DNA from: Candidatus Woesearchaeota archaeon
GTDB lineage: Archaea; Nanobdellota; Nanobdellia; Woesearchaeales; DSVV01
Length of the DNA stretch: 60,976 bases
Direction of reading: 5' to 3'
Assembly (NCBI GenBank): GCA_018303325.1
Contig: JAGVYH010000003.1
Location: 1-60,976, forward strand
Shown piece by piece: positions 1,479 to 59,618 of this stretch. The notes under the pieces were generated by a model. The model searched no databases, was not told the origin of the DNA, and saw only the letters and a program-made list of their open reading frames with translations. The position numbers and the translations under genes were made by a program. The number at the start of each line of letters is the position of its first letter. The stretch's first letter is position 1.

Positions 1479-2002
1479 TTATTCTTTCTCATAACTTTTT
1501 ATGCAATTGCATCTTGTCAATGGGCATAGAAAGTAAGTCGCATTTTTTAATTTATCGCCAATATTTAATTTATCCAGCCCATCTCCTCTTAAACAGACAT
1601 TATAATTGTTCAATGAGATAGTTGGCTGTAACTCTGTATAATGCTCAGGATAATCTGTGCCATTATCCCTGAATAAGTCAACATGATCTTCTCCTTTCGC
1701 AATAATATAGTAAGTGACCTAAATTTTTATACAAATCGTGTCACTTACTATATTTGTCGGACATAACTATTTGTATAAGTATTTATGTCCGACATTATAG
1801 TTGCATTTTCAATTGTTCGAGGATATCTTTGGTAAGCTAAAGCGCCAGCCATTAATACGGCAATTGACAACAGTGCATATTCCCTTATTCTGCTTAGTGA
1901 TATTGATTGTCTGCTTAATGAAGAGGAGTGAGATATTTCAGTTTCATCGATGCCTGTTGTTTTATCGTAGATTGATGGCATTTTGATCAGCTTCCTTTGC
2001 AT
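1479..2002 (-). pseudogene. family-A membrane protein gene split by insertion of a hairpin (H) element
   Basis: ORF 1748..2002 encodes TM + RTIENATI, then runs into the repeat and stops (MSDINTYTNSYVRQI is translated repeat). Beyond the repeat an open frame (1479..~1705) reads IIAKGEDHVDLFRDNG...LNIGDKLKNATYF...RCNC..., matching the C-terminal domain of intact paralogs 445..825 and 9925..10770. Confidence 0.55.
1706..1799. mobile_element. H element, two-hairpin version (tagtaagtgac/gtcacttacta and tgtcggacataa/ttatgtccgaca hairpins)
   Basis: Near-identical to part of the repeats at 17031..17210 and 23473..23702. Sits inside a coding frame that continues on both sides. Confidence 0.6.
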
Positions 2003-3971: not shown

Positions 3972-5417
3972 TTATTGCATTTGATATCCTGCTTCTTTAT
4001 ATTGCCCAAAAACAGCTCTGTCAAAAAGAGATATTTCCCATCCTTTTGTCTGGAACATACAATCTGTTTCAAATTTAGGTCTTCTCTCTTCAATATTTCT
4101 CATTACTTCAAAAATCTTATCTAAAGGATTATCTTTGATAAATCTTGGTGAAAAGTAAAGCAGAAACGGAAATTGCTCGACGTATCCATTTGAATCGACT
4201 CCTTTAAAATCTAACAAATCATAAATTGAGATTGTTCTAGCCAGAGAATAACTAATAACTGTTGGAAGTGTTTCTATTATCTTATTTGTAGCTTCTGCAT
4301 CATGTCTTGAATCAAGGAATTCATAAATTAAATTAGTTTTAGCCAGAGAACAACCAAGAACAGCTGGATGTATTTCTACTATTTTATTTGTAATTTCTGT
4401 GTCATGTCTTGAGTCGAGAAACTCATAGATAAAAGATGTTCGTTTAAGAGAATAGCGAAGAACCGTTGGACGTATTTCTACTATTCTATCTGTAGCTTTT
4501 TGTTCATGTCTTGAGTCAAGAAATTCATAAATTGAATTAGTTCTAGCCAGAGAATAACTAATAACTGCCGGAAGTGTCTCTACTATTTTATTTGTAGCTT
4601 TTTGTCCATGTCTTGAGTCAAGGAATTTATAAATTGAACTTGTTCTTTTAAAAGAGCATCTAAAAACAGAAGGCTGTGTTTCTACTATCTTATTAGTAGC
4701 TTTTTGTTCATGCCTTGAGTCAAGGAATTTATAAATTGAAGTAGTCCTTAACAGAGAATAACCAAGAACTGTTGGAAGCATTTCTACTATTTTATTAGTC
4801 GCTTTTTGTTCATGCCTTGAATCAAGAAAATTATAAATTGAATTAGTTCTAGCAAGAGAATAACTAAGAACAGTGGGATGTGTTTCTACTATTTTATTAG
4901 TCGCTTTTTGTTCATGCCTTGTGTCAAGAAAATTATAAATTGAAATTGTCCTTGCAAGAGAACAGCGAAAAATAGCAGGATGTGATTCTACTATTTTATT
5001 TGTGGCTTCTGCGTCATGCCTTGAGTCAAGGAATTCATAAATTGAACGTGTCCTAGCCAGAGAATAGCCAAGAACAGTTGGATGTATTTCTACTGTTCTA
5101 TTTGTAGTTTTTTGTCCGTGTCTTGAGTCGAGGAATTTATAAATTGAACGTGTCCTAGCCAGAGAACAGCCAAGAATACTTGGAAATGCTTTTATTATTT
5201 TATATGCAGCTTCTGTGCCATGTCTTGTGTATAAAAAGAAAACTCTTGTGTGGCTCTCTTCTGAAATATCTCTTGAACAAGCAAGAATGAAGTCTAAACT
5301 AAAGCGTGTAGTATCATAGTTAACTTCACTGGCAAACTTAACTAGTGCTGCTTTTTTTCGCGCAGTTAATCCTTCTTTTTCATTAATTTGATATACTATC
5401 TGTTCTAATTCTCTCAT
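3972..5417 (-). CDS. helical repeat protein with ~10 tandem 34-aa repeats, mTERF-like
   Basis: Repeat consensus SLARTxSIYxFLDSRHxxKATNKIVExxPxVLxY. The P-x-[IV]-L-x-[YC]-S-L ... [FI]-L pattern resembles mTERF motifs; a TPR-like helical repeat is the alternative. Confidence 0.6.
   Translation of the reverse strand: MRELEQIVYQINEKEGLTARKKAALVKFASEVNYDTTRFSLDFILACSRDISEESHTRVFFLYTRHGTEAAYKIIKAFPSILGCSLARTRSIYKFLDSRHGQKTTNRTVEIHPTVLGYSLARTRSIYEFLDSRHDAEATNKIVESHPAIFRCSLARTISIYNFLDTRHEQKATNKIVETHPTVLSYSLARTNSIYNFLDSRHEQKATNKIVEMLPTVLGYSLLRTTSIYKFLDSRHEQKATNKIVETQPSVFRCSFKRTSSIYKFLDSRHGQKATNKIVETLPAVISYSLARTNSIYEFLDSRHEQKATDRIVEIRPTVLRYSLKRTSFIYEFLDSRHDTEITNKIVEIHPAVLGCSLAKTNLIYEFLDSRHDAEATNKIIETLPTVISYSLARTISIYDLLDFKGVDSNGYVEQFPFLLYFSPRFIKDNPLDKIFEVMRNIEERRPKFETDCMFQTKGWEISLFDRAVFGQYKEAGYQMQ
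4150..5190 (-). repeat. coding tandem repeat, 102-bp period, about 10 copies
   Basis: Recurring ...catg(t/c)cttgagtc(a/g)aggaa(t/a)t(t/c)ataaattgaa... blocks every 102 nt on the plus strand. Confidence 0.8.
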
Positions 5418-10770: not shown

Positions 10771-10786
10771 TTTAGTTCATTGTTAT

Positions 10787-10847
10787 GCACTTTTGTATAT
10801 ACAAATGGAATTAATTTGTTCGAAAACTAATTCCATTTAATATATAC
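10787..10847. repeat. F hairpin, copy F1 (loop gttcgaaaa)
   Basis: aaatggaattaattt-gttcgaaaa-ctaattccattt, flanked by cttttgtatatac / aatatatac. Confidence 0.6.
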
Positions 10848-15678: not shown

Positions 15679-16893
15679 CTATCTTACACTATCATATTGT
15701 TTAATCAGTGCCCTAATGCTATCAACGAAATCATATACTAACAAGATACTTTCTTCTGGTGTGTTCTTTGTTAGGTCTGGTTTGATTTTTCTTTTCACCA
15801 CAGAATAATCCCATTTTAATAATACAAATTCTGTTTTTCCTGACTCAAATGGGCTGTTCATGAAACTACCACTGTAGTTCTCAGATAAGTATGAAACTAT
15901 TTCTTGTTTGATGGAATAATATAAGTGATTAAACTTGCCCCCCCAATCACCTTCCAAATTATTTCCATACTTATCTACTCCATTTTTCTTCCCGACATTA
16001 AAATCATCTATTTCTATCACTAGCTCACAAGCCCAACTATCTAACAAGGATACTAAGTCATTTCCTTGATAATGTTCATCATCACCAACTATTTTTATTT
16101 TGATTGATCCATGTTTATTTTCATGATTAATTTTGTGAGAAGAAATAAGATACATAATACGAGCGTATAGTTCGTTCACATGATCTTCCGTCATCATAAT
16201 ATCTCCTGCATCAAGTAAGCCTGAAACCCCTGTTAGTTTATATTCAATAGCACTAATCTCTACATATGCAAGTTCATCATTTATAATTACGCCTTTTACA
16301 TATATAATATCATCTAATTTAAAACTCATTAACTCTTTTTTGTTACAATTATTTTCTGAATTGTTCTCATCTTCTCCACAGTCCAATACAAAATAATGTA
16401 ACTCTGAATTCCAGATACCACCAGATAAACCAAATGCATTTAGAACATGTGTGGCTTCTTCAAATATTTGATCGGTGAATCGTTTTTCACAATTTTCGTT
16501 CTGACAACAGTCCATATCATCCATATAGTCAAACTCGCCACAATAGGTTGATACAAATGATTGAAATGAGTTAGGGATTCCATAATACTCAATCCTCGGC
16601 GCAAATCTTTCCAATGTTTCTTCTCTAGAAAGAACTTCTTGTTGTGTTATCGTTGGTTGTGTTTGTGGTGAGATGTATATTATACTGCTGGCTAACGCAG
16701 CAATACCTGCACCAACCAGCGCGCCAATCTTCCAGTAATTTTTATCTTTCTTTCCAGCAAGCTCTTTAATCCTTTCAGGAGAATAAGTTAATCCTCTGAC
16801 TCCGCCATCGCAGGTATTCCACGCATGGTTGCCTCTGACTATTTCTGTGAGTTCTACATCTCTTGGTTCATGTGGATTTTGTTTGTCAGCCAT
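15679..16893 (-). CDS. handle-family paralog 1 (404 aa): conserved N-terminal handle + TM + divergent C-terminal domain
   Basis: VRGNHAWNTCDGGVRGLTYSPERIKELAGKKDKNYWKIGALVGAGIAALA, then a unique acidic Cys-containing domain. Confidence 0.7.
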   Translation of the reverse strand: MADKQNPHEPRDVELTEIVRGNHAWNTCDGGVRGLTYSPERIKELAGKKDKNYWKIGALVGAGIAALASSIIYISPQTQPTITQQEVLSREETLERFAPRIEYYGIPNSFQSFVSTYCGEFDYMDDMDCCQNENCEKRFTDQIFEEATHVLNAFGLSGGIWNSELHYFVLDCGEDENNSENNCNKKELMSFKLDDIIYVKGVIINDELAYVEISAIEYKLTGVSGLLDAGDIMMTEDHVNELYARIMYLISSHKINHENKHGSIKIKIVGDDEHYQGNDLVSLLDSWACELVIEIDDFNVGKKNGVDKYGNNLEGDWGGKFNHLYYSIKQEIVSYLSENYSGSFMNSPFESGKTEFVLLKWDYSVVKRKIKPDLTKNTPEESILLVYDFVDSIRALIKQYDSVR

Positions 16894-17030: not shown

Positions 17031-17210
17031 TAGCAAAGGCACTAAATTTTCGTAATTAATGATGCCTTTGCTATATATAGTAAGTGACGTAAATTTTTAT
17101 ACAAATCGTGTCACTTACTATATTTGTCGGACATAACACTTGGTATAAATATTTATGTCCGACATTATACGTGGACTTTAACAAAAAAGATACGAATATT
17201 AAAGTCCACC
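17031..17210 (+). repeat. H hairpin-module array, left copy (four hairpins)
   Basis: Four modules: tagcaaaggc/gcctttgcta, tagtaagtgac/gtcacttacta, tgtcggacataa/ttatgtccgaca, gtggacttta/taaagtccac. The reverse complement is near-identical to 23473..23702. Confidence 0.85.
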
Positions 17211-17213
17211 CCT

Positions 17214-18731
17214 CTAATACAATTCAAGGTCTTTTGTATATACTGTTAATGGTGGAAACTTCATATTCCATTTAAAATACCGATCTCTTGATTTGTCATG
17301 CCCATATTTTAATAGTGTACTAAACACATCAACAAGTCGGTATAACAATAGTGCGTTATTTTCAGGCGTATTTTCTATGTCACCATAAATTATTATTGTC
17401 TTCTCCTCTGAGACAAAACTAGATAATGTTTCTTCTTTTTTACTCCTTCTTCTTGCCTCTTGAATATTTTTTCTTATCGAGTGTTCTGCATCAAATACAG
17501 GTTCTAACATGGTTTCAATAATTTCATACATTATATCAACTGCTCCAGTTACTTCATCATAATAATAAATTATACCTAATTTAGATAATGCACTATTTAT
17601 ATTCCACATTAGTGTGAGTCGCATAGAAAAAAGTCCCCGTCGAATGCTTGACCATGAGTTTACGTCATCAATTATGTTACAATCAGCCCATCTATCATAC
17701 TTAGAAGGTAGATCATGAGTTATTCTACAAACATTATGTTCAAACCACCCATCATATGGCATATTTATACTGAAGCTATAACTACTTGCAAAAATCTGTG
17801 TTTTATTAACCTCATCAGTCTGTTTTGCATTTGATTCTTCAAGTGTCACTTTCAGCATTCCGTGTAATGGTAATAATTTGAAATGATAATAACTGATTAT
17901 TGGCCCATATATTTTAAAATTATCTAATTCTTTCTTGTTGTCCATTATGTACTGTTTTTCTAAATATAGTTCATCTATGGTATGCTTTACAGCTCTTATT
18001 TCCAAGTAAGGCTGCACTCCTTCTTTTATTACACCCTTAACACTTAGTATGTCTTCCAGTGGCAAACTTAATTTTTCATTCTCTTTGCAAACATCACCTT
18101 CTTCAGATGATTTGCATTCATAAGATAAGCAATGTATCTCTGGAATATATCTCTTTTCAAAGAACCCATTTTCATATCGTGGAATATATTCGACTTCATC
18201 ACTATTTGAAACCCACCCTTTATAACAAAATTTTTTTAATAATGAGGGCAATTTATCAGTATAATCTCCTTTGTACTTCTCACTTATCTTCTTTACCTCT
18301 TGACTATCCAAGTCTGTTATGTAGTCCCACTCATTGTTTTTACTTAATGTATTTTTTTCAATTCCTTCAGTATAATCCTCTTCAACCCCATAATATTCTA
18401 TTGTTGGATCAACATTTTCCAATATATTCTCAAGAGAAACTGCCGTGGTTTGACTCTGTTGAGATAACTTTGTTATTTCTAATGTTGCTTTAGATGCAGT
18501 AAAATATAATATTCCAACAAGCAATGTAGCAACCCCACCACTCACCAACGCTCCAATCTTCCAATAATTCTTTTTATGTTTTTTTTCAGCAAGCTCTCTA
18601 ACTCTTTCAGCAGAATAAAGTAATCCTCTGACACCGCCATTGCAGGTATTCCATGCATGGTTGCCTCTGATTCGTTCGTCTGTTTTGACTTTATCATCTA
18701 TGGTTTGCGGTGATTGTGTTTCATTTGGCAT
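17214..18731 (-). CDS. handle-family paralog 2 (505 aa)
   Basis: IRGNHAWNTCNGGVRGLLYSAERVRELAEKKHKKNYWKIGALVSGGVATLL + divergent domain. Confidence 0.7.
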   Translation of the reverse strand: MPNETQSPQTIDDKVKTDERIRGNHAWNTCNGGVRGLLYSAERVRELAEKKHKKNYWKIGALVSGGVATLLVGILYFTASKATLEITKLSQQSQTTAVSLENILENVDPTIEYYGVEEDYTEGIEKNTLSKNNEWDYITDLDSQEVKKISEKYKGDYTDKLPSLLKKFCYKGWVSNSDEVEYIPRYENGFFEKRYIPEIHCLSYECKSSEEGDVCKENEKLSLPLEDILSVKGVIKEGVQPYLEIRAVKHTIDELYLEKQYIMDNKKELDNFKIYGPIISYYHFKLLPLHGMLKVTLEESNAKQTDEVNKTQIFASSYSFSINMPYDGWFEHNVCRITHDLPSKYDRWADCNIIDDVNSWSSIRRGLFSMRLTLMWNINSALSKLGIIYYYDEVTGAVDIMYEIIETMLEPVFDAEHSIRKNIQEARRRSKKEETLSSFVSEEKTIIIYGDIENTPENNALLLYRLVDVFSTLLKYGHDKSRDRYFKWNMKFPPLTVYTKDLELY

Positions 18732-18818
18732 ATTTTAAACCTAATCTCATTATTATTAATTAAAAATTAGATCACAAAGAATCTCTTTTTTTGTGTACTT
18801 CTTCTTATCAGTTCTTAA

Positions 18819-20432
18819 TCACCACGCCGTACCGCCGGTTGGATGGCATGTTTTTTCTGTAAGTTCTCCCAATGTTGTTTCCAAGAGGGGAGTATTAATA
18901 TAAGGTTCTAATGCTTGGTAAACTTTAAATAATTCTACATTTTTCTCTATTTCAGTATCAAATACTTGTACACACATTATTATCTTTTCGAGATATCCAA
19001 ATAGTTCTTCTATTTCAGTTTGGTTTTTAAGTTTTGAGAAAAAACCAAGATAGCTTTTTATAAGATTATTTGTTCTTAGATATGGTAAAACCTTTTCAAT
19101 ATGTTTGAAGATTGCGGAAACAGTTTCTCTATCTTTTTCGCTGTCATCTACACCATCTAAGTATGAATGTGCTATACTATACATAATAGAAACCATTTCA
19201 GGATTGTCTGTGCTTACTCTAATATCATACATAATTATATCATCATGTAAATTTAATATATTATTATAAATATATGTTCTAAGCAAATTTGCTAGTTTAT
19301 GAATATCATCAATCCTTTCCTCCTCAGCAAGTGTCGTCTTGCCTGTAAATACATGCTCTCTTCTTTCAGTAGTCCATCTAACAAGTTCTAATTCATACTC
19401 GATGTCACCATGTTTGTTCACATCTCTTGCTATTTTCTTCTGAAGTCGACAAGCCATTTTTTCAAGTGCAGTAAATGATTTCCAATAATCTTCCTCGCAA
19501 TACTTAAGTTCAATATTGTATTTTTTACATTGAACAATCAATTCTTCTTTACTCATGCAACTGCCAACTCTTTTATCCAATTTTATATCTTGTTTAGAGT
19601 CATCATTATAAACTAATCTGAATATTATTTTTGGAAGAGTGCTATCGTCAATAAGATAATATCCTTCATCTTTTTCATCTCCTTCTGTTTTTTGTAGTGT
19701 TAATGATGAGAAAGCCATAACAAGCGCTAAATCTTTTAGTTTGCCGTAATCTATTTTAATATCATACTCTTTTTTAATCCACCACACAAAATTAGGCTCA
19801 TTATCTAAAACATGTTGTGAAAAATCAGTTAAAGTATAATCATCTTTACCACCAACTATAATTACCTTGCCCTGAATTGATTCATCATATTTTATTACTC
19901 TTTCATCAAAAGTAAGTGTAACCGAAGAAGAACTAATTGAATCGTTATTAATAATACCAACAACATCTAATAAATTATTAAGAGAAGGTGTGATGCCTGC
20001 ATCACAAAACAGACCATCACCATTCCCAACATATCCTCTTTCACAAAATGATTCTAAGGCAGAATTAATCTTTTCTCTTACTTCTCTTAAGGTAAGACCT
20101 TTTATTACTTTACCTTTATATTGTTCTATATTACTAATTTGTTCAACTGGTGGTTCAATCTTAGACCAGCCCTCTCTTTCATCTGTTGATGTCAAGAATA
20201 ATATTGAAGTAGTAGCTACTGCAGTAAACACAGCAATCCCACTCACCAGCGCCCCAATCTTCCAGTAATTCTTTTTATGTTTCTTCCCAGCAAGCTCTAT
20301 AACTCTTTCAGCAGAATAAAGTAATCCTCTTACACCACCTTCAGTCTTTTCATGCCATGCAAAGTTATTTCTAGCTCGCTCTTCTGTGTTGACTTTCTCG
20401 TCGAGAGTTTGGGTCAAGTTTTTGTTTGACAT
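18819..20432 (-). CDS. handle-family paralog 3 (537 aa), degenerate handle
   Basis: ARNNFAWHEKTEGGVRGLLYSAERVIELAGKKHKKNYWKIGALVSGIAVF + divergent domain. Confidence 0.7.
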   Translation of the reverse strand: MSNKNLTQTLDEKVNTEERARNNFAWHEKTEGGVRGLLYSAERVIELAGKKHKKNYWKIGALVSGIAVFTAVATTSILFLTSTDEREGWSKIEPPVEQISNIEQYKGKVIKGLTLREVREKINSALESFCERGYVGNGDGLFCDAGITPSLNNLLDVVGIINNDSISSSSVTLTFDERVIKYDESIQGKVIIVGGKDDYTLTDFSQHVLDNEPNFVWWIKKEYDIKIDYGKLKDLALVMAFSSLTLQKTEGDEKDEGYYLIDDSTLPKIIFRLVYNDDSKQDIKLDKRVGSCMSKEELIVQCKKYNIELKYCEEDYWKSFTALEKMACRLQKKIARDVNKHGDIEYELELVRWTTERREHVFTGKTTLAEEERIDDIHKLANLLRTYIYNNILNLHDDIIMYDIRVSTDNPEMVSIMYSIAHSYLDGVDDSEKDRETVSAIFKHIEKVLPYLRTNNLIKSYLGFFSKLKNQTEIEELFGYLEKIIMCVQVFDTEIEKNVELFKVYQALEPYINTPLLETTLGELTEKTCHPTGGTAW

Positions 20433-20464
20433 TATTTATGTGCATTATTTAATTTTTATATTAT

Positions 20465-22051
20465 TCACTCTATTTTTGTATGTGTTGTTTGTTTGTACAA
20501 TAATTTTAGTATCTCTTTATTATTCATCTCTTTGTAAAGCAAAAAGATAAACTCTAATGGTGTTCTAAAAGCATCAGCCAATTGCATCATTAATGACGTG
20601 TTCTCTTCAGTTGACAGTGTAGGATTATGTTTAATTATAATTTCCTTTGTGTCTGCTTCAAATGCCATAAAAGTTCTTGTAACAACTCGTGTAGGATTAT
20701 TCTCACATTCGTCAGGAAAAAAGGAGTAAGTAAATGGGTAAACTTCTTCTGCATTCAGTTTTGGTTTGTACACATCTCCATTTGGATCATATTCAGCAAT
20801 TTTCTTTATTAAAAAAGCAGGTCCATTATTATAATCGAATCTAGATGCAGGAATACTAATTCTTTGCTCATCATCACTTTGAAAGCTTTTAAAATAAAAA
20901 TCTATTGCAATTAATCTATAAATTGTTTCATCATCATACATATATTCATCAGTTATACCATCATAATACGTATCCTCATCAGTTGTATCATTATCTATTT
21001 TCATCCATGTAAAGCCGTAAGGAGTTAGATACTCAACATACCTGAATTCAATCCTTGCTTTTTCTAGCTGTTCAGAATTTATTTCATCTCCTAAATTAAG
21101 TTCTAATTGTACTTCTAATCCAATAATTAAATCAATAAAAAAGTTAGAATCACTTAGAACTTCAGAAACAGTACGGGTTCTTTTCTGATACGATGTTTCC
21201 TCATTATCTCTTGTAATCTTACCCATTGTCTTACCTATAACACTTTCTATTTTTTCTAGTTCATCCAAAACTTGTAGTTCTGCGATAGTGTTATCAAATA
21301 TCTCTTCTTCGTATTTATCTATAATTAAGTTAGGTTCACCTTTCTTTAATTTAAGAATTAATCTTGGTGTATATCCTTCATCAAATTCTACCCTCACATC
21401 TTTAATATCACTTAAATCGTTATCCACTATTTCTTTCAGCTCTTCAGTTACACACTCTTTCTCAAAGCTAACGATCACCTCGCTAGTTTTTTTATTATAT
21501 GTTTTGTTTGGTTTAGTTTCATATTTTAAACAATAGTTTTCAAGACAAGTTATCTTCATATCATCAGAAGCACTTACAAAACAAAAATCATTCATTACAT
21601 TTTCTATTAAATCATCTATTCCAAGCAAACTATCGGTTCCTAAACTAGAATCAAACCAACCTTCTACTTTTTCTTTTAAACCATCTATTGCTAGTAGATT
21701 ATATGCCCCATTGAAGTCAAACCAACTAATTCCACGATATGTGTCAACAACATTAAATGGTGTTTCTACTTTAATTTCTTCTTTTTCAGGATTTTCAACA
21801 ATTATTTCAGGATTCGGGGGAGCAAGCGGCGAAGTAAAATATAATAATCCAGATACTATCGCAGCAATCCCACCACCAACCAACGCGCCAATTCTCCAAT
21901 AATTCTTTTTATGTCTCTTCTCAGCAAGCTCTTTAATCTTTTCAGCAGAATAAACTAATCCTCTGACTCCACCATCGCAGGTATTCCACGCATGGTTGCC
22001 TCTTCTATTCTCTTCTACTTTTTGTTCAGAATTTTCTTTTTCCTTTGCCAA
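20465..22051 (-). CDS. handle-family paralog 4 (528 aa)
   Basis: RRGNHAWNTCDGGVRGLVYSAEKIKELAEKRHKKNYWRIGALVGGGIAAIV + divergent acidic domain. TTG start with agggg upstream. Confidence 0.65.
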   Translation of the reverse strand: MAKEKENSEQKVEENRRGNHAWNTCDGGVRGLVYSAEKIKELAEKRHKKNYWRIGALVGGGIAAIVSGLLYFTSPLAPPNPEIIVENPEKEEIKVETPFNVVDTYRGISWFDFNGAYNLLAIDGLKEKVEGWFDSSLGTDSLLGIDDLIENVMNDFCFVSASDDMKITCLENYCLKYETKPNKTYNKKTSEVIVSFEKECVTEELKEIVDNDLSDIKDVRVEFDEGYTPRLILKLKKGEPNLIIDKYEEEIFDNTIAELQVLDELEKIESVIGKTMGKITRDNEETSYQKRTRTVSEVLSDSNFFIDLIIGLEVQLELNLGDEINSEQLEKARIEFRYVEYLTPYGFTWMKIDNDTTDEDTYYDGITDEYMYDDETIYRLIAIDFYFKSFQSDDEQRISIPASRFDYNNGPAFLIKKIAEYDPNGDVYKPKLNAEEVYPFTYSFFPDECENNPTRVVTRTFMAFEADTKEIIIKHNPTLSTEENTSLMMQLADAFRTPLEFIFLLYKEMNNKEILKLLYKQTTHTKIE

Positions 22052-22073
22052 TTAATAACCCCTAAATTTGTTA

Positions 22074-23414
22074 TTACGCTTTTTTACTTCTTTTAGAATC
22101 TCTTATATATCTGGTCCAATCATGCCAAGTATTTAGCCTTCTGAATACTGTAAATAATCTATCAACTTCTGGGCTTTCTTCTTTTATCAAATGGATATCA
22201 GAATAATCCTTTTCTTTTGGAGGAAGATTTTGTTTATATCTGAATACTCTCATTTTATCTTCTTTTGTAGTTAAAACTAAATTATATCCCTCTTGTCCTT
22301 TTTCATTTTGTCCTTTTTCGCTTTTATATTCCCTCCCAAAAAAATAATTAACAAAATGTATTGGACCTTGTGGTGGATAGTGGCTGCTAAAACAAGAATT
22401 TACAAATAATCCTCTTTTTGTTTTAGCTGCCATCACCAAAACATAATCATAAACTAATTCATAAAGAAAATCTCTCAATTTTACTTCTTCTTCACTAAAT
22501 ATTTCTTCTATAATTCGGTCAGGTATTTTTTCATCTTTCTTATCATCTTTAGTATAATCTTCTATACTTTTCACTGATTCAGGTTTAAACCATGGAACAC
22601 CAAACACACCTTCAATCACAAGATATTTATTACCTGTTTTATTGCCTTTTTTATCCACTTCTTCTGCATCAACAAGAATAGCAACAATTTGTGCTGGAGC
22701 ATTTTGTGTTTTCTTAAATCCTTCTGTTATTTTTGGTGTGATAAGAAGATAGTGTATATGTTCATCAGCACAATCAAGCATTGCAGCTCTCATCTCATAA
22801 TCTCCATTGAATTTACAAGTATTAACATCATGATAAAGATTTCTCCATATAGAATCTGAAAACATTACTCCATATCGCTGATTTCTAAATAGTTTTTCAA
22901 CAGAAGCAAAAACACAAGAATTACTATCTTTTGGCAATGTTTTATTATAATTCTTAATAAGGTAACATATTAAACGCAAAGCGTCAATTGGATTTCCTTC
23001 CTTTTCAAGAAAATGTTCACCAATATTTTTAAATTTCTCACTTTTTATAATTTTATATCTATCTTTTGTTATTTCCACACATGTTGAGGTTGTTGTTGGC
23101 TCAAGGACAACTTCATTAAGAAATCTTAAAATATTTTCATTTGGGCTGCTTTTTTCTTTAAATATCTGCTTTAAATATTTGGAGTCACTTCCAAAATAAA
23201 ATTCTTGGCATAATACTAATACATTTCCTGCAAATTCTTCATATGTATAATCAAATTTAATTTTTCCTATTTTACCAATTTCTTTTATTGGCTCTATACT
23301 CGCTTTACAGAATTCAACAACTCGTTTAAAATTAGAACCATTAATACCACCAAGGCTAGCTACTAATTCAGGATTTTCTTGTATTTTAGCTTGAACAATA
23401 TCTTCTATTCCCAT
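22074..23414 (-). CDS. hypothetical soluble protein (446 aa), first gene of the paralog cluster
   Basis: Long intact ORF 22 nt upstream of paralog 4; no TM segment, no recognised motif. Confidence 0.6.
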   Translation of the reverse strand: MGIEDIVQAKIQENPELVASLGGINGSNFKRVVEFCKASIEPIKEIGKIGKIKFDYTYEEFAGNVLVLCQEFYFGSDSKYLKQIFKEKSSPNENILRFLNEVVLEPTTTSTCVEITKDRYKIIKSEKFKNIGEHFLEKEGNPIDALRLICYLIKNYNKTLPKDSNSCVFASVEKLFRNQRYGVMFSDSIWRNLYHDVNTCKFNGDYEMRAAMLDCADEHIHYLLITPKITEGFKKTQNAPAQIVAILVDAEEVDKKGNKTGNKYLVIEGVFGVPWFKPESVKSIEDYTKDDKKDEKIPDRIIEEIFSEEEVKLRDFLYELVYDYVLVMAAKTKRGLFVNSCFSSHYPPQGPIHFVNYFFGREYKSEKGQNEKGQEGYNLVLTTKEDKMRVFRYKQNLPPKEKDYSDIHLIKEESPEVDRLFTVFRRLNTWHDWTRYIRDSKRSKKA

Positions 23415-23472
23415 CTACCCCACCCCACAACTATTTATAATAATTGTAATAATTATAATCCTTACACATAGT

Positions 23473-23702
23473 GGTGGACTTTAATATTCGTATCTTTTTT
23501 GTTAAAGTCCATGTATAATGTCGGACATAAATATTTATACCAAGTGTTATGTCCGACAAAGGTTGGAAAGCAAAGCTTTCTAACCTCTCAGGAATCTCTG
23601 ATTCCCGAGATATAGTAAGTGACACGATTTGTATAAAAATTTACGTCACTTACTATATATAGCAAAGGCAACGTTAATTACGGAAATTTAGTGCCTTTGC
23701 TA
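23473..23702 (-). repeat. H hairpin-module array, right copy (six hairpins), inverted relative to 17031..17210
   Basis: Same four modules in reverse complement, plus a 51-bp insert carrying two extra hairpins (ggttggaaagc/gctttctaacc and tctcaggaatc/gattcccgaga). Confidence 0.85.
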
Positions 23703-23821
23703 CATAACCCAATTCTAAACTAAAGGTACACCATATCCATATATAAATCTTACCTTTATTATTACTTATAAATAGTCACATACCCACAATCTTTAAAAAG
23801 AGAGCCAAGTTCCATAACAAG

Positions 23822-24874
23822 ATGGACTTAGACACATTATTGGAACAAAACTATGAAGAGTTAAAGGACCCTGAATGTAAAAAGAAGGTTCTTGAATATC
23901 TGGCTGAGCATGAGACAGTGGAAGATGAAGAAGTTGTATTTATAAAACGCCTGACAAAGACTGCAAGCCACATTATTAAGTCAGACCCTGATTCAATTGA
24001 TGAGTTTCTGGAGGATTTATATACTTTTAATCTAACAGGAGCTAAGAAAGCGTTTTCAATTCTTAATGATAAAGAAAATAAAGATTATAGTTCAAATCAA
24101 TTGCTGAACATGACACTGCATTTTCTTACTTACGCAGGAGATATAGCAATGGTTTTGTTTAAAAAAACAGGCGACATCTTCTGGGCAGAGAAATGGTATG
24201 ACCTTCATCGTAAATCTGCTGATACTGGCATGGGAATAGATACTAAACACTCTGTGTACGTTTATAGTTTTGCAGGCAATGCAGCAAGAGCATTGTTCGA
24301 TAAGACAGGCGATATTACCTGGGCAGAGAAATGGTATGATTCTTATTATAAATCCGCAGAGTCAAGCAAAGACTTCAATAAAAAACATTCAGTACATTGT
24401 TATGGTTTTGCAGGCAATGCAGCAAGAGCATTGTTCGATAAGACAGGCGATATTACTTGGGCAGAGAAATGGCATGAATGTTACAAGCTCTCAGCAGAAC
24501 TAAGCAGTGAGTTTGACCTTGCTTCATTTGACCCTACATCTGTTGAAGCACTCTCAACAATTTGTTATGACCCAAAACATTCAGCACATGCCTATAGCTT
24601 TGCAGGATTTGCTGCAAAAGAAAGATTCAAAAAGAGGCCGGAAACTGAGCGCACAGAAACCAAATGGGCAGAAGAGGCGATTAGTTGTTATCAGAAATTT
24701 TTAGCTTACTATAAACCAATTTATTGTATTGAAGGCGAGAACAAATCCAGACCAGAGGGACTGATTCACAAGATAAATAGTGATATCTCTTATTTAAAGA
24801 GGCAAATAGATTATATTTCGAAACAATTAGCTGCTCACAACAGAGATGTTGGACACAGTCCAACCACTGTGTAA
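23822..24874 (+). CDS. helical repeat protein (350 aa)
   Basis: Three to four repeats of KHSxxxYxFAGNAARALFDKTGDITWAEKWYDxYxKSAE. Two DNA copies (from ~24268 and ~24406) are nearly identical over ~70 nt. Confidence 0.6.
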   Translation: MDLDTLLEQNYEELKDPECKKKVLEYLAEHETVEDEEVVFIKRLTKTASHIIKSDPDSIDEFLEDLYTFNLTGAKKAFSILNDKENKDYSSNQLLNMTLHFLTYAGDIAMVLFKKTGDIFWAEKWYDLHRKSADTGMGIDTKHSVYVYSFAGNAARALFDKTGDITWAEKWYDSYYKSAESSKDFNKKHSVHCYGFAGNAARALFDKTGDITWAEKWHECYKLSAELSSEFDLASFDPTSVEALSTICYDPKHSAHAYSFAGFAAKERFKKRPETERTETKWAEEAISCYQKFLAYYKPIYCIEGENKSRPEGLIHKINSDISYLKRQIDYISKQLAAHNRDVGHSPTTV

Positions 24875-25028
24875 TAAACTTGTGAAGTGCGCACTCCAAA
24901 AAGAAAGTTTGGTGTTGCATTTTTAAAGCCTGACACTCATTTTTATAAACTTTTTAGTTTTAAACTTTTTAGTTTATAAAAAAGATGGCAAGATTGCATA
25001 TAATAAAACATCTAAATCTTCAATAAAC

Positions 25029-25252
25029 GTATTTGTTTAGTTCTTGGCATGTCCAACACGTTCACAAAGATAAAATAGTAAGTCGTTAGTCGTAGGTCGT
25101 TTGTCGTCAGCTGTTTTTTACGTTTTTCCGTTTACGACTAACGACAAACGACTTACGACAAACAGTTTAATTAGTGAGACGGTGGACTGCGTCCCACAAA
25201 CGAGTAGAAAGCAGAAAAAAAGATGAAAAAAAGAAATCAGCTAAACAAATAC
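25029..25252 (-). mobile_element. P element, copy P1 (core of GTCGTNN heptamers)
   Basis: Ends gtatttgtttag...ctaaacaaatac. Flanks caataaac / caataaaa (7 of 8). Inner conserved boxes ttggcatgtccaacacgttcac and gacggtggactgcgtcccacaaacg. Confidence 0.7.
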
Positions 25253-39457: not shown

Positions 39458-39555
39458 TACCACATATACTTATTGCGTATCTTATTATCACTTTCAGATT
39501 AATAAGCGCTATTTTGAACCGAAAAAGCGAAAGCTTTATAAATATGTGACTATAC

Positions 39556-39654
39556 TATCGAGAAACATGTCGGTTATAATACGCATATTATCGAGAAACA
39601 TGTCGGTTATAATACGCATATTATCGAGAAACATGTCGGTTATAATAACCCAGC
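39556..39654 (+). repeat. 33-bp direct tandem repeat, 3 copies
   Basis: tatcgagaaacatgtcggttataatacgcatat repeated head to tail; the last copy diverges at its end. Confidence 0.85.
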
Positions 39655-39662
39655 TATGAATA

Positions 39663-39824
39663 GTATGTGCATAGCTCTCATAGGGATTATGCTACTGCCA
39701 GTTGCAGTGGCGGAAATCATGCTGTAATAATGCTGGATTTCCGTTCCCTAAAAGATAAACAGAGAAATGCCACTGCAACAAATTTGAGGCAGTAGCATAA
39801 TCCTTGAAAAAGCTATGCACATAC
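39663..39824 (-). mobile_element. T-family MITE, copy T3 (inverted orientation, different interior)
   Basis: Same terminal arms as T1/T2. Exact 8-bp flanking duplication tatgaata (39655..39662 and 39825..39832). Confidence 0.8.
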
Positions 39825-39859
39825 TATGAATAATACCTTAAACGAAGATGTGAACGAAT

Positions 39860-48192: not shown

Positions 48193-48425
48193 GTATGCGC
48201 ATAGCTCTTTTAAGGAGGATGCTACTGCCTCAAATTTGTTTTCTGAGCAGTTTTATTCGTAAGATATCGAGTGGCCGAAAACTTATAAGATATACATTAT
48301 ATACAAAAGTGATTAATTTTCGAACAAATTAATCACTTTTGTATATATTTGTAGAGAATGAACAATCGTGTTTTCGGCGAAGAAAACTGGCAGTAGCATA
48401 ATCCCAATGAGAGCTATGCGCATAC
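48193..48425 (+). mobile_element. T-family MITE, copy T2, carrying a nested F hairpin (48299..48346)
   Basis: Arms gtatgcgcatagctc...ggatgctactgcc / ggcagtagcataatc...gagctatgcgcatac. No flanking duplication visible. Confidence 0.7.
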
Positions 48426-59526: not shown

Positions 59527-59618
59527 TACTAAAAGTGCAAAATAATCGAACATTATTTTGCACTTTTGTATATACAAAAGTGATTAATTTGTTCGAAAAT
59601 TAATCACTTTTAGTATAT
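59527..59618. repeat. F hairpins, copy F4 (two adjacent hairpins)
   Basis: aaaagtgcaaaataa-tcgaac-attattttgcactttt and aaaagtgattaattt-gttcgaaa-attaatcactttt. Confidence 0.6.

Follow-up and report, generated by a model that had tools for sequence, protein, structure and literature searches.

The window analysed here is a stretch of 60,976 nucleotides (nt) from Candidatus Woesearchaeota archaeon (assembly GCA_018303325.1, contig JAGVYH010000003.1), and corresponds to contig C60 of a 1.97-Mb genome (G000) that is assembled in 78 contigs, 92% complete and approximately 80% coding. Two near-identical inverted repeats, referred to as the left arm (17031..17213, plus strand) and the right arm (23470..23702, minus strand), enclose a segment at 17214-23469 that carries four co-oriented minus-strand genes. 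The first gene of this block encodes an orphan protein of 446 amino acids (aa; 22074..23414), followed by three paralogs of 528 aa (paralog 4; 20465..22051), 537 aa (paralog 3; 18819..20432) and 505 aa (paralog 2; 17214..18731), the last of which has no family match and abuts the left arm at its 3′ end. Outside the segment lie paralog 1 (404 aa; 15679..16893, minus strand) and a gene for a 350-aa repeat protein (23822..24874, plus strand) that is divergent from the 446-aa gene. On either side of the left arm are the stop codon of the 505-aa gene and the 404-aa gene's promoter region, and the right arm separates the start of the 446-aa gene from that of the divergently oriented 350-aa gene. The analysis described below indicates that the arms are probably arrays of small, non-coding, hairpin-forming mobile repeats rather than sites dedicated to inverting or transposing the block.

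An inverted-repeat search paired 17031-17123 with 23610-23702 (93 nt, 97% complementary) and 17123-17213 with 23470-23560 (91 nt, 98% complementary), a match for which 0 occurrences are expected from shuffled sequences, excluding chance. The original prediction, which described near-identical inverted repeats bracketing paralogs 2-4 and the 446-aa gene and leaving paralog 1 outside, is borne out in this respect, with the inner boundary of the arms lying 3 nt deeper than first placed. The arms measure 183 nt (left) and 233 nt (right), and the difference is a single insert of 50 bp, where 51 bp had been reported. Single-strand folding resolved the left arm into four hairpins (z-score of -9.6) and the right arm into six (z-score of -11.0), with none of 200 shuffled sequences folding as well, in agreement with the four modules and the two extra right-hand hairpins originally described. 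The modules of the left array are H1 (17031-17077), H2 (17075-17123), H3 (17124-17169) and H4 (17167-17213). The right array carries the same modules in reverse, H4 (23470-23516), H3 (23514-23559), H2 (23610-23658) and H1 (23656-23702), together with the insert, a 50-nt double hairpin designated X (23560..23609, minus strand), which is nested at the H2|H3 junction. Arm compared with arm, there are five base differences, three in the loop of H1 and two in H4, and the 95-nt H2H3 unit is identical between the two (p ~0.026 that all five differences miss H2H3). The block is bordered on the outside by CCAATCTA on the left and CATAACCC on the right with no target duplication, and no compositional break was seen at the enclosed block.

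Every module of the arms (approximately 47 nt each) was also found elsewhere in the genome, the left arm giving 73 matches. At a threshold of at least 80% coverage there are 32 copies of H2, 29 of H4, 25 of X, 18 of H3 and 10 of H1, and the copies are grouped in 87 arrays, which mostly have no partner and in which module content and order vary freely from site to site. Arrays are intergenic in 72 of the 74 placeable cases, and the gaps that they occupy are tandem, convergent and divergent in 47, 14 and 11 cases, compared with a background of 757, 221 and 233, showing no bias toward the 3′ ends of genes. A third copy of H2H3 in the window, without H1 or H4, is a solitary unit at 1705..1799 (plus strand). 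Six other inverted pairs of 88-103 nt, with at least 90% identity and separated by 3-17 kb, are present on single contigs of the genome (C15:8602-8704/15611-15710; C32:3533-3632/10896-10995; C65:11049-11136/14882-14969; one each on C77 and C55; and C15:12727/15776). The inverted pair studied here is the longest of its kind in this genome and no special device.

The common form of a module is TATA-stem-loop-stem-TATA: H1 and H2 begin with TATAG and end with TATA, H3 runs from TTTGTCGG to ATTATA, and H4 runs from TATACGTGG to CACTATA. A direct H1|H4 junction (…GCCTTTGCTATATACGTGGAC…) is present at six other sites, and on contig C67 this junction is occupied by four other hairpins. H2H3 occurs without H1 or H4 approximately 25 times, always in the form TA|TAG…ATTATA|. 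X is an independent family whose 25 copies include 21 that lie immediately 3′ of TATAT, with no target duplication in any of them; it is usually solitary or in the loop of another hairpin family, and is found at the H2|H3 junction in three sites. The arms are nested insertions, with H2H3 placed within an H1H4 unit and X within H2H3, and an insertion that recreates TATA sites at its own ends would explain how arrays build up. The usual host of X is itself another hairpin family (…GCACTTTTGTATATACAAAAGTGATTAATTTGTTCGAAAATTAATCACTTTT…), in which X occupies the TATA loop of the first hairpin. This host family is present in the window at 10778-10845, 48298-48347 and 59551-59618 and at many other genomic sites, and half-host copies adjoining X also occur.

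For comparison, the only close relative was used, a sister species of the same genus (G001). The modules are restricted to this genus: the same families gave 74 matches at other loci of the sister genome, many of them at contig ends, and none in three genomes from other genera of the family. Copies have also been gained since the two species split. When the flanks of H2H3 copies were used as queries with the element removed, the sister genome aligned across the insertion points of several copies, and the element is missing from it at no fewer than four orthologous sites. One of these (site 5) is a base-exact empty site, reading TTTTTTATATAATTCTT in the sister species, in which TTTTTTA-TA-TAATTCTT aligns with TTTTTATA-TA-[TAGTAAG…GACATTA]-TA-ATTCTT in the genome studied. 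This arrangement fits a duplication of TA and, equally, insertion 3′ of a TA without duplication, since the element's own end is TA, and suggests a TA target rule for the modules. The stems of the modules covary. In a set of 17 distinct H2H3 copies, pairing holds in 98% of stem cells and 7 of the 26 pairs have changed on both sides, a degree of covariation that none of 500 shuffles reached, and sliding the register lowered pairing to 24-45%.

The gene cluster itself is native to the locus. The genome is a metagenome-assembled one of an archaeon, its small-subunit ribosomal RNA (rRNA) scoring 1408 bits with the archaeal model compared with 1072 bits for the bacterial model. A phage or plasmid origin was ruled out, the rRNA marking an archaeal chromosome; PHROG searches gave 0 matches for 10 window proteins, and phage records were also without a match. 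The 404-aa protein and the three enclosed paralogs share an N-terminal handle of approximately 75 aa plus a transmembrane helix and then diverge, and the 446-aa protein is unrelated to these four; the cluster proteins had no match in Pfam, PHROGs, PADLOC or the PDB sequences. The sister species (L027, contig C79, 9716-16863) is collinear with the window at 9.5-23.4 kb and has the same relative orientation throughout, with a radical SAM gene, a gene for a 704-aa protein, paralog 1, further paralogs and an ortholog of the 446-aa gene (86% identity). The cluster there encodes proteins of 402, 617, 865 and 451 aa, compared with 404, 505, 537, 528 and 446 aa in the window. Its left junction is a 46-nt spacer with no array, and upstream from the 446-aa ortholog the 91 nt up to the contig end are free of hairpins. 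The paralog cluster evolves in place: the two species differ in how many paralogs it has and in how long these are, the N-terminal handle is retained, and the orientation seen in the reference is ancestral. The synteny comparison proposed originally, which looked for presence or absence of the block as a unit, came out otherwise, with the cluster at the same locus and the left array missing. Variation in the enclosed genes was also seen in assemblies L035/L043 and L044/L054, where the 528-aa paralog is split into 392, 58 and 102 aa in one population, and in another population is replaced by a 472-aa variant beside a 450-aa variant of the 446-aa gene.

The 55 nt upstream of the 446-aa gene (23415..23469, minus strand), which comparison of sequences marks as its likely promoter and leader, contain a TATA-like element, TTATAAATA, approximately 26 nt before the ATG and a G-rich block, GTTGTGGGGTGGGGTAG, that is conserved in the sister species. 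The promoter of the 446-aa gene therefore likely lies inside the repeat-bounded segment, as both the TATA-like box and the conserved block sit between the ATG and the array, and the promoter regions for the 404-aa and 350-aa genes are beyond its ends. An inversion would be expected to detach none of these three genes from its promoter, and would change only the read-through context of the 505-aa gene; its effect on the genes would probably be little. The original suggestion that inversion would reorient the four genes relative to a promoter in 23703-23821 thus loses its footing.

Taken together, these observations are best accommodated by a model in which the modules insert at TA or TATA(T) and would favour the TATA junctions and loops of resident modules, a preference because of which they would pile up into nested arrays. 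H1H4 units would have landed independently and in opposite orientations in the two spacers that flank a native cluster of orphan membrane-protein paralogs. H2H3 would then have entered the H1|H4 junction of one array and reached the other as a copy, through a local hop or gene conversion, and X would have inserted between H2 and H3 on the right, presumably in that order. The 183/233-bp inverted repeat would be a by-product of repeat accumulation, which could nonetheless serve as a substrate for RadA-type homologous recombination.

Several observations weigh against this explanation. The order H1-H2-H3-H4 is found in the genome only at the two arms, and their H2H3 units have private loop variants in common, such as CACTTGG in place of the CACTTTG of the nearest subgroup. 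Because this order is unique to both arms and their H2H3 units are identical and share private variants, the arms are not fully independent, and some copying has taken place between them, through an event of recombination or local transposition. They are not a recent duplication of a whole arm, since their differences are confined to H1 and H4 and the left H1 is identical to a copy at C25:113516 and not to the right H1. The empty sites in the sister species other than site 5 lie in diverged spacers and are not base-exact. Two public contigs, L051 and L047, have the junctions that inversion of the segment predicts and, if real, would mean that the arms do mediate inversion. Finally, the search for a mobilising enzyme gave no candidate suited to the modules. 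No IS630-type DDE transposase (DDE_3) and no TnpB were found in either genome of the genus. Each assembly has one full-length Y1 transposase gene, an insertion sequence (IS) IS200/IS605 TnpA (NF033573, 133 bits), which fails the model for the REP-associated tyrosine transposase (RAYT; 26 bits against a cut-off of 80; REP, repetitive extragenic palindrome), and no RAYT was found. IS630-type DDE transposases, TnpB and RAYT were rejected as mobilisers, all being absent, and the IS200/IS605 element was rejected because its TTTAG target and end hairpins are unlike the TATA modules.

The IS200/IS605 element is present in multiple copies and carries the subterminal hairpin CCCAGCACTAAAGTGCTGGG at both ends; it always abuts ACTAAA, so that on the opposite strand it inserts 3′ of TTTAG. 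Immediately next to the Y1 gene there are no TATA hairpins. The element is active and has moved since the two species split, as the copy in the sister species (C4:944-1555) is a 612-nt insertion relative to contig C3 of G000. It also contributes to fragmentation of the G000 assembly, because approximately 15 contig ends stop within its termini (for example C72:1-92, C72:13737-13832, C3:45875-45966 and C56:18117-18206).

The alternative that survives best, although it is rather doubtful, is that the segment inverts at low frequency by homologous recombination between the arms, with L051 and L047 as genuine recombinants; such inversion would not conflict with the view of the arms as arrays of mobile repeats. 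The orientation of the segment was genotyped in every public assembly of the locus recoverable by exact-protein look-ups. Scanning JGI metagenome contigs for the private H3-H4 sequence of the array gave 0 matches, apparently because the scan excluded records close to the genome studied. The locus-bearing public contigs are from groundwater metagenomes, and many of the assemblies come from one aquifer and are therefore not independent. In the parental arrangement, the left arm reads from the 404-aa side through left-type H1, no X, and H4 with G,C to the 505-aa end, and the right arm reads from the 350-aa side through right-type H1, X, and H4 with A,A to the 446-aa start. Junctions, in tallies that include unread places with the same neighbouring proteins, were parental in 20 cases and recombinant in two from the 350-aa side, parental in 18 and recombinant in none from the 404-aa side, parental in 12 and recombinant in none from the 446-aa start, and parental in 16 and recombinant in one from the 505-aa end (17 informative contigs, 18 read). 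This amounts to 66 parental junction observations compared with two one-sided recombinant contigs, and the arrays that were read are all parental but those of L051 and L047. The reference orientation is overwhelmingly predominant.

L051 (ERZ27254846 k141_1183003, assembled with MEGAHIT, 6.5 kb) runs from the 505-aa end through left-type H4, H3, X, H2 and right-type H1 to the 350-aa gene. It is a precise hybrid, with one flank 100% identical to the window and the other differing by 1 mismatch in 4656 nt (99.98%), and its crossover falls within a 48-nt identical H3 tract. The diagnostic arrangement of this type is X beside H3, then left-type H4 (…CCAACCTTTGTCGGAC…CATTATACGTGGAC…CCACCCCT), and the marker that follows X and H3 is TATACGTGGAC…CCACCCCT-CTAATAC. 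L047 (JGI 3300009296) has a 350-aa/505-aa junction like that of L051 without X, recognised by right-type H1 (TTTCCGTAATTAACGTTGCC) followed by H2-H3 without X, with a crossover in a 60-nt H2 tract. The spacings of both recombinants match the prediction exactly (352 = 233 + 119 and 302 = 183 + 119), and the identical H2H3 units suggest past exchange between the arms. Against this, the reciprocal junction, from the 404-aa side to the 446-aa start, was not found among 12 + 18 informative contigs obtained with look-ups of the 446-, 404- and 528-aa proteins and of short flanks; its markers would be X together with left-type H1, or TATACATGGAC…CCACCACT-ATGTGTA where X is absent. L047 is chimeric elsewhere: its first 183 nt are foreign to G000 and meet the rest of the contig midway through the 505-aa gene. 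L051 is short and breaks at non-repeat positions. A third contig, L092, which shares its study and its assembler with L051, exits the left arm inside H2 into the flank of an unlinked H2H3 copy at C65:8561-8744, a switch that spans approximately 40 identical nt, and in that sample the parental 404-aa side is present on a separate contig. Joins between loci at repeats were also seen in L038/L048 (ERZ28563591 scaffold_20569), from a strain with approximately 99.4% identity, in which contig C31 is joined to C60 through a common 232-bp MITE (a miniature transposable element with inverted repeats; window 25020-25251 and C31:20880-21112), connecting the region of the 350-aa gene to glycosyltransferase and carbamoyltransferase genes of C31. 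Such a join may reflect a genuine rearrangement mediated by the repeat, or else chimeric assembly. No mosaics, which repeated flipping would produce, were found among the arrays in parental orientation. In assemblers that use several k-mer lengths (multi-k), joins made at low k over short identical tracts can persist in the final contigs at low coverage. The two contigs hint at flipping of the 6.3-kb block, and may be an assembly artefact. Of the original suggestion that the arms are a substrate for homologous recombination, the part concerning sequence stands, in that the arms are long and near-identical and two contigs carry the predicted junctions, while the evidence for inversion itself is weak and one-sided.

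A further step, somewhat less probable again, would be that nested, TATA-targeting hairpin micro-elements build portable recombination sites in DPANN archaea and drive a real inversion of the 6.3-kb segment, with its fast-evolving membrane-protein paralogs, in natural groundwater populations, with crossovers in identical tracts of only 48-60 nt. If so, L051 and L047 would be true recombinants and the identical H2H3 units would be the footprint of gene conversion between the arms.

It is unlikely that the arrays are functional for the host, as terminators, sites of RNA stability or regulation, or small RNAs, with a regulatory role for their pairing around the block. Oligo-T tracts serve in archaeal termination, and H4 read on the minus strand places a run of six T residues directly after the stop codon of the 505-aa gene; the stems are maintained by compensatory change, and the TATA-rich junctions could act as TATA boxes. 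Set against these points, the right arm lies between two gene starts, the arrays as a whole show the indifference to 3′ ends described above, their presence differs between sister species, their composition is as variable as noted, and no Rfam family was found at threshold in 15-26 kb of the window. The original prediction had named simple terminator clusters as the outcome if arrays commonly occurred without partners and a single orientation were seen. Arrays are mostly unpartnered and the orientation is nearly uniform, but they are not terminator clusters, given the position of the right arm and the distribution of the arrays relative to gene ends.

A programmed switch, in which a site-specific recombinase would flip the segment and change expression of the surface-protein paralogs, is highly improbable. 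Inverted repeats do bracket fast-evolving membrane-protein paralogs, and four tyrosine-recombinase genes are present in the genome (contigs C63, C12, C66 and C52). All four are on other contigs, no recombinase gene lies on the contig of the window, as had been noted originally for the window, and no serine recombinase was found in G000. Moreover, a recombinase recognising arm sequences that recur in 87 arrays would scramble the genome, the likely promoters of the 446-, 404- and 350-aa genes would stay attached after inversion, the arrays are absent at the sister-species locus, and one orientation dominates. Equally far-fetched is the original suggestion that the arms mark the ends of a composite mobile cassette, as the terminal inverted repeats of a transposon or cassette by which the four genes would have arrived. 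It has in its favour the near-identical inverted ends and the orphan cargo, but fails on a cargo paralogous to the gene just outside, a cluster that in the sister species is collinear, occupies the corresponding locus with unchanged orientation and lacks an array at its left junction, no duplication flanking the block, no compositional break, and arms that hold no transposase and are made of independent repeats.

Two further repetitive features were noted in the window. Ten tandem copies of a 102-nt unit (60-79% identical) are present at 4114-5331, within an open reading frame of 481 aa (3972-5417), and three tandem 33-nt units (91-100% identical) at 39552-39650 adjoin a palindromic, MITE-like element at 39655-39832.

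Among known systems, the modules resemble REP sequences and their derivatives, bacterial interspersed mosaic elements (BIMEs) and REP doublets forming hairpins (REPINs), in being short extragenic palindromes present in tens of copies and in mosaic arrays like those of BIMEs, with compensatory change in the stems, families confined to narrow lineages, and a known role of such repeats as sources of ectopic recombination. REP sequences are defined by a GTAG or CGTC tetranucleotide at one end together with a RAYT (PMC3733652). The modules fall outside this definition: they end in TATA with no GTAG or CGTC tag, are hosted by an archaeon, and have no cognate RAYT, the only Y1 transposase being an ordinary IS200/IS605 TnpA. 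Prokaryotic MITEs with a TA target are derived from IS630/Tc1-mariner elements, as in SM1 of Sulfolobus. The modules are like these in being small and non-autonomous, with inverted ends, a base-exact empty site at which TA may have been duplicated, and differences in presence between close relatives; they are unlike them in consisting of approximately 47 nt and a single hairpin each, in nesting at junctions and loops, in the lack of any duplication for X, and in having no parent IS with matching ends and no IS630-type DDE transposase in the two genomes of the genus. In a census of MITEs, a Woesearchaea genome was among the archaea of highest density, with 105 per Mb (PMC11602168). The modules are thus REP/MITE-like elements with a new combination of features: they end in TATA, nest within one another, have neither a RAYT nor a matching IS, and occur in an archaeon.

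At the level of the locus, the arrangement is like that of repeat-mediated inversions in that inverted dispersed repeats bracket a segment and the crossovers of any recombinants would fall in identical tracts, and is unlike them in offering one junction type only, on two short contigs, with chimeras documented at such repeats. It shares with invertons and shufflons (Hin, Gin, Fim, Rci) the inverted repeats flanking genes for variable surface-type proteins, and differs from them in having no dedicated recombinase, no locus-specific repeats and no promoter or coding sequence split by the repeats. In metagenome assemblies, arrays of this kind give rise to alternative joins both inside a locus and from one locus to another, and apparent inversions or translocations at them therefore need read-level proof before a biological reading. 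TATA-flanked hairpin modules specific to a genus are documented in Woesearchaeota by exact empty sites, nesting and stem covariation, and a long inverted repeat around a DPANN gene cluster can probably be attributed to self-nesting hairpin repeats as their by-product, being neither a switch of the inverton type nor the ends of a cassette.

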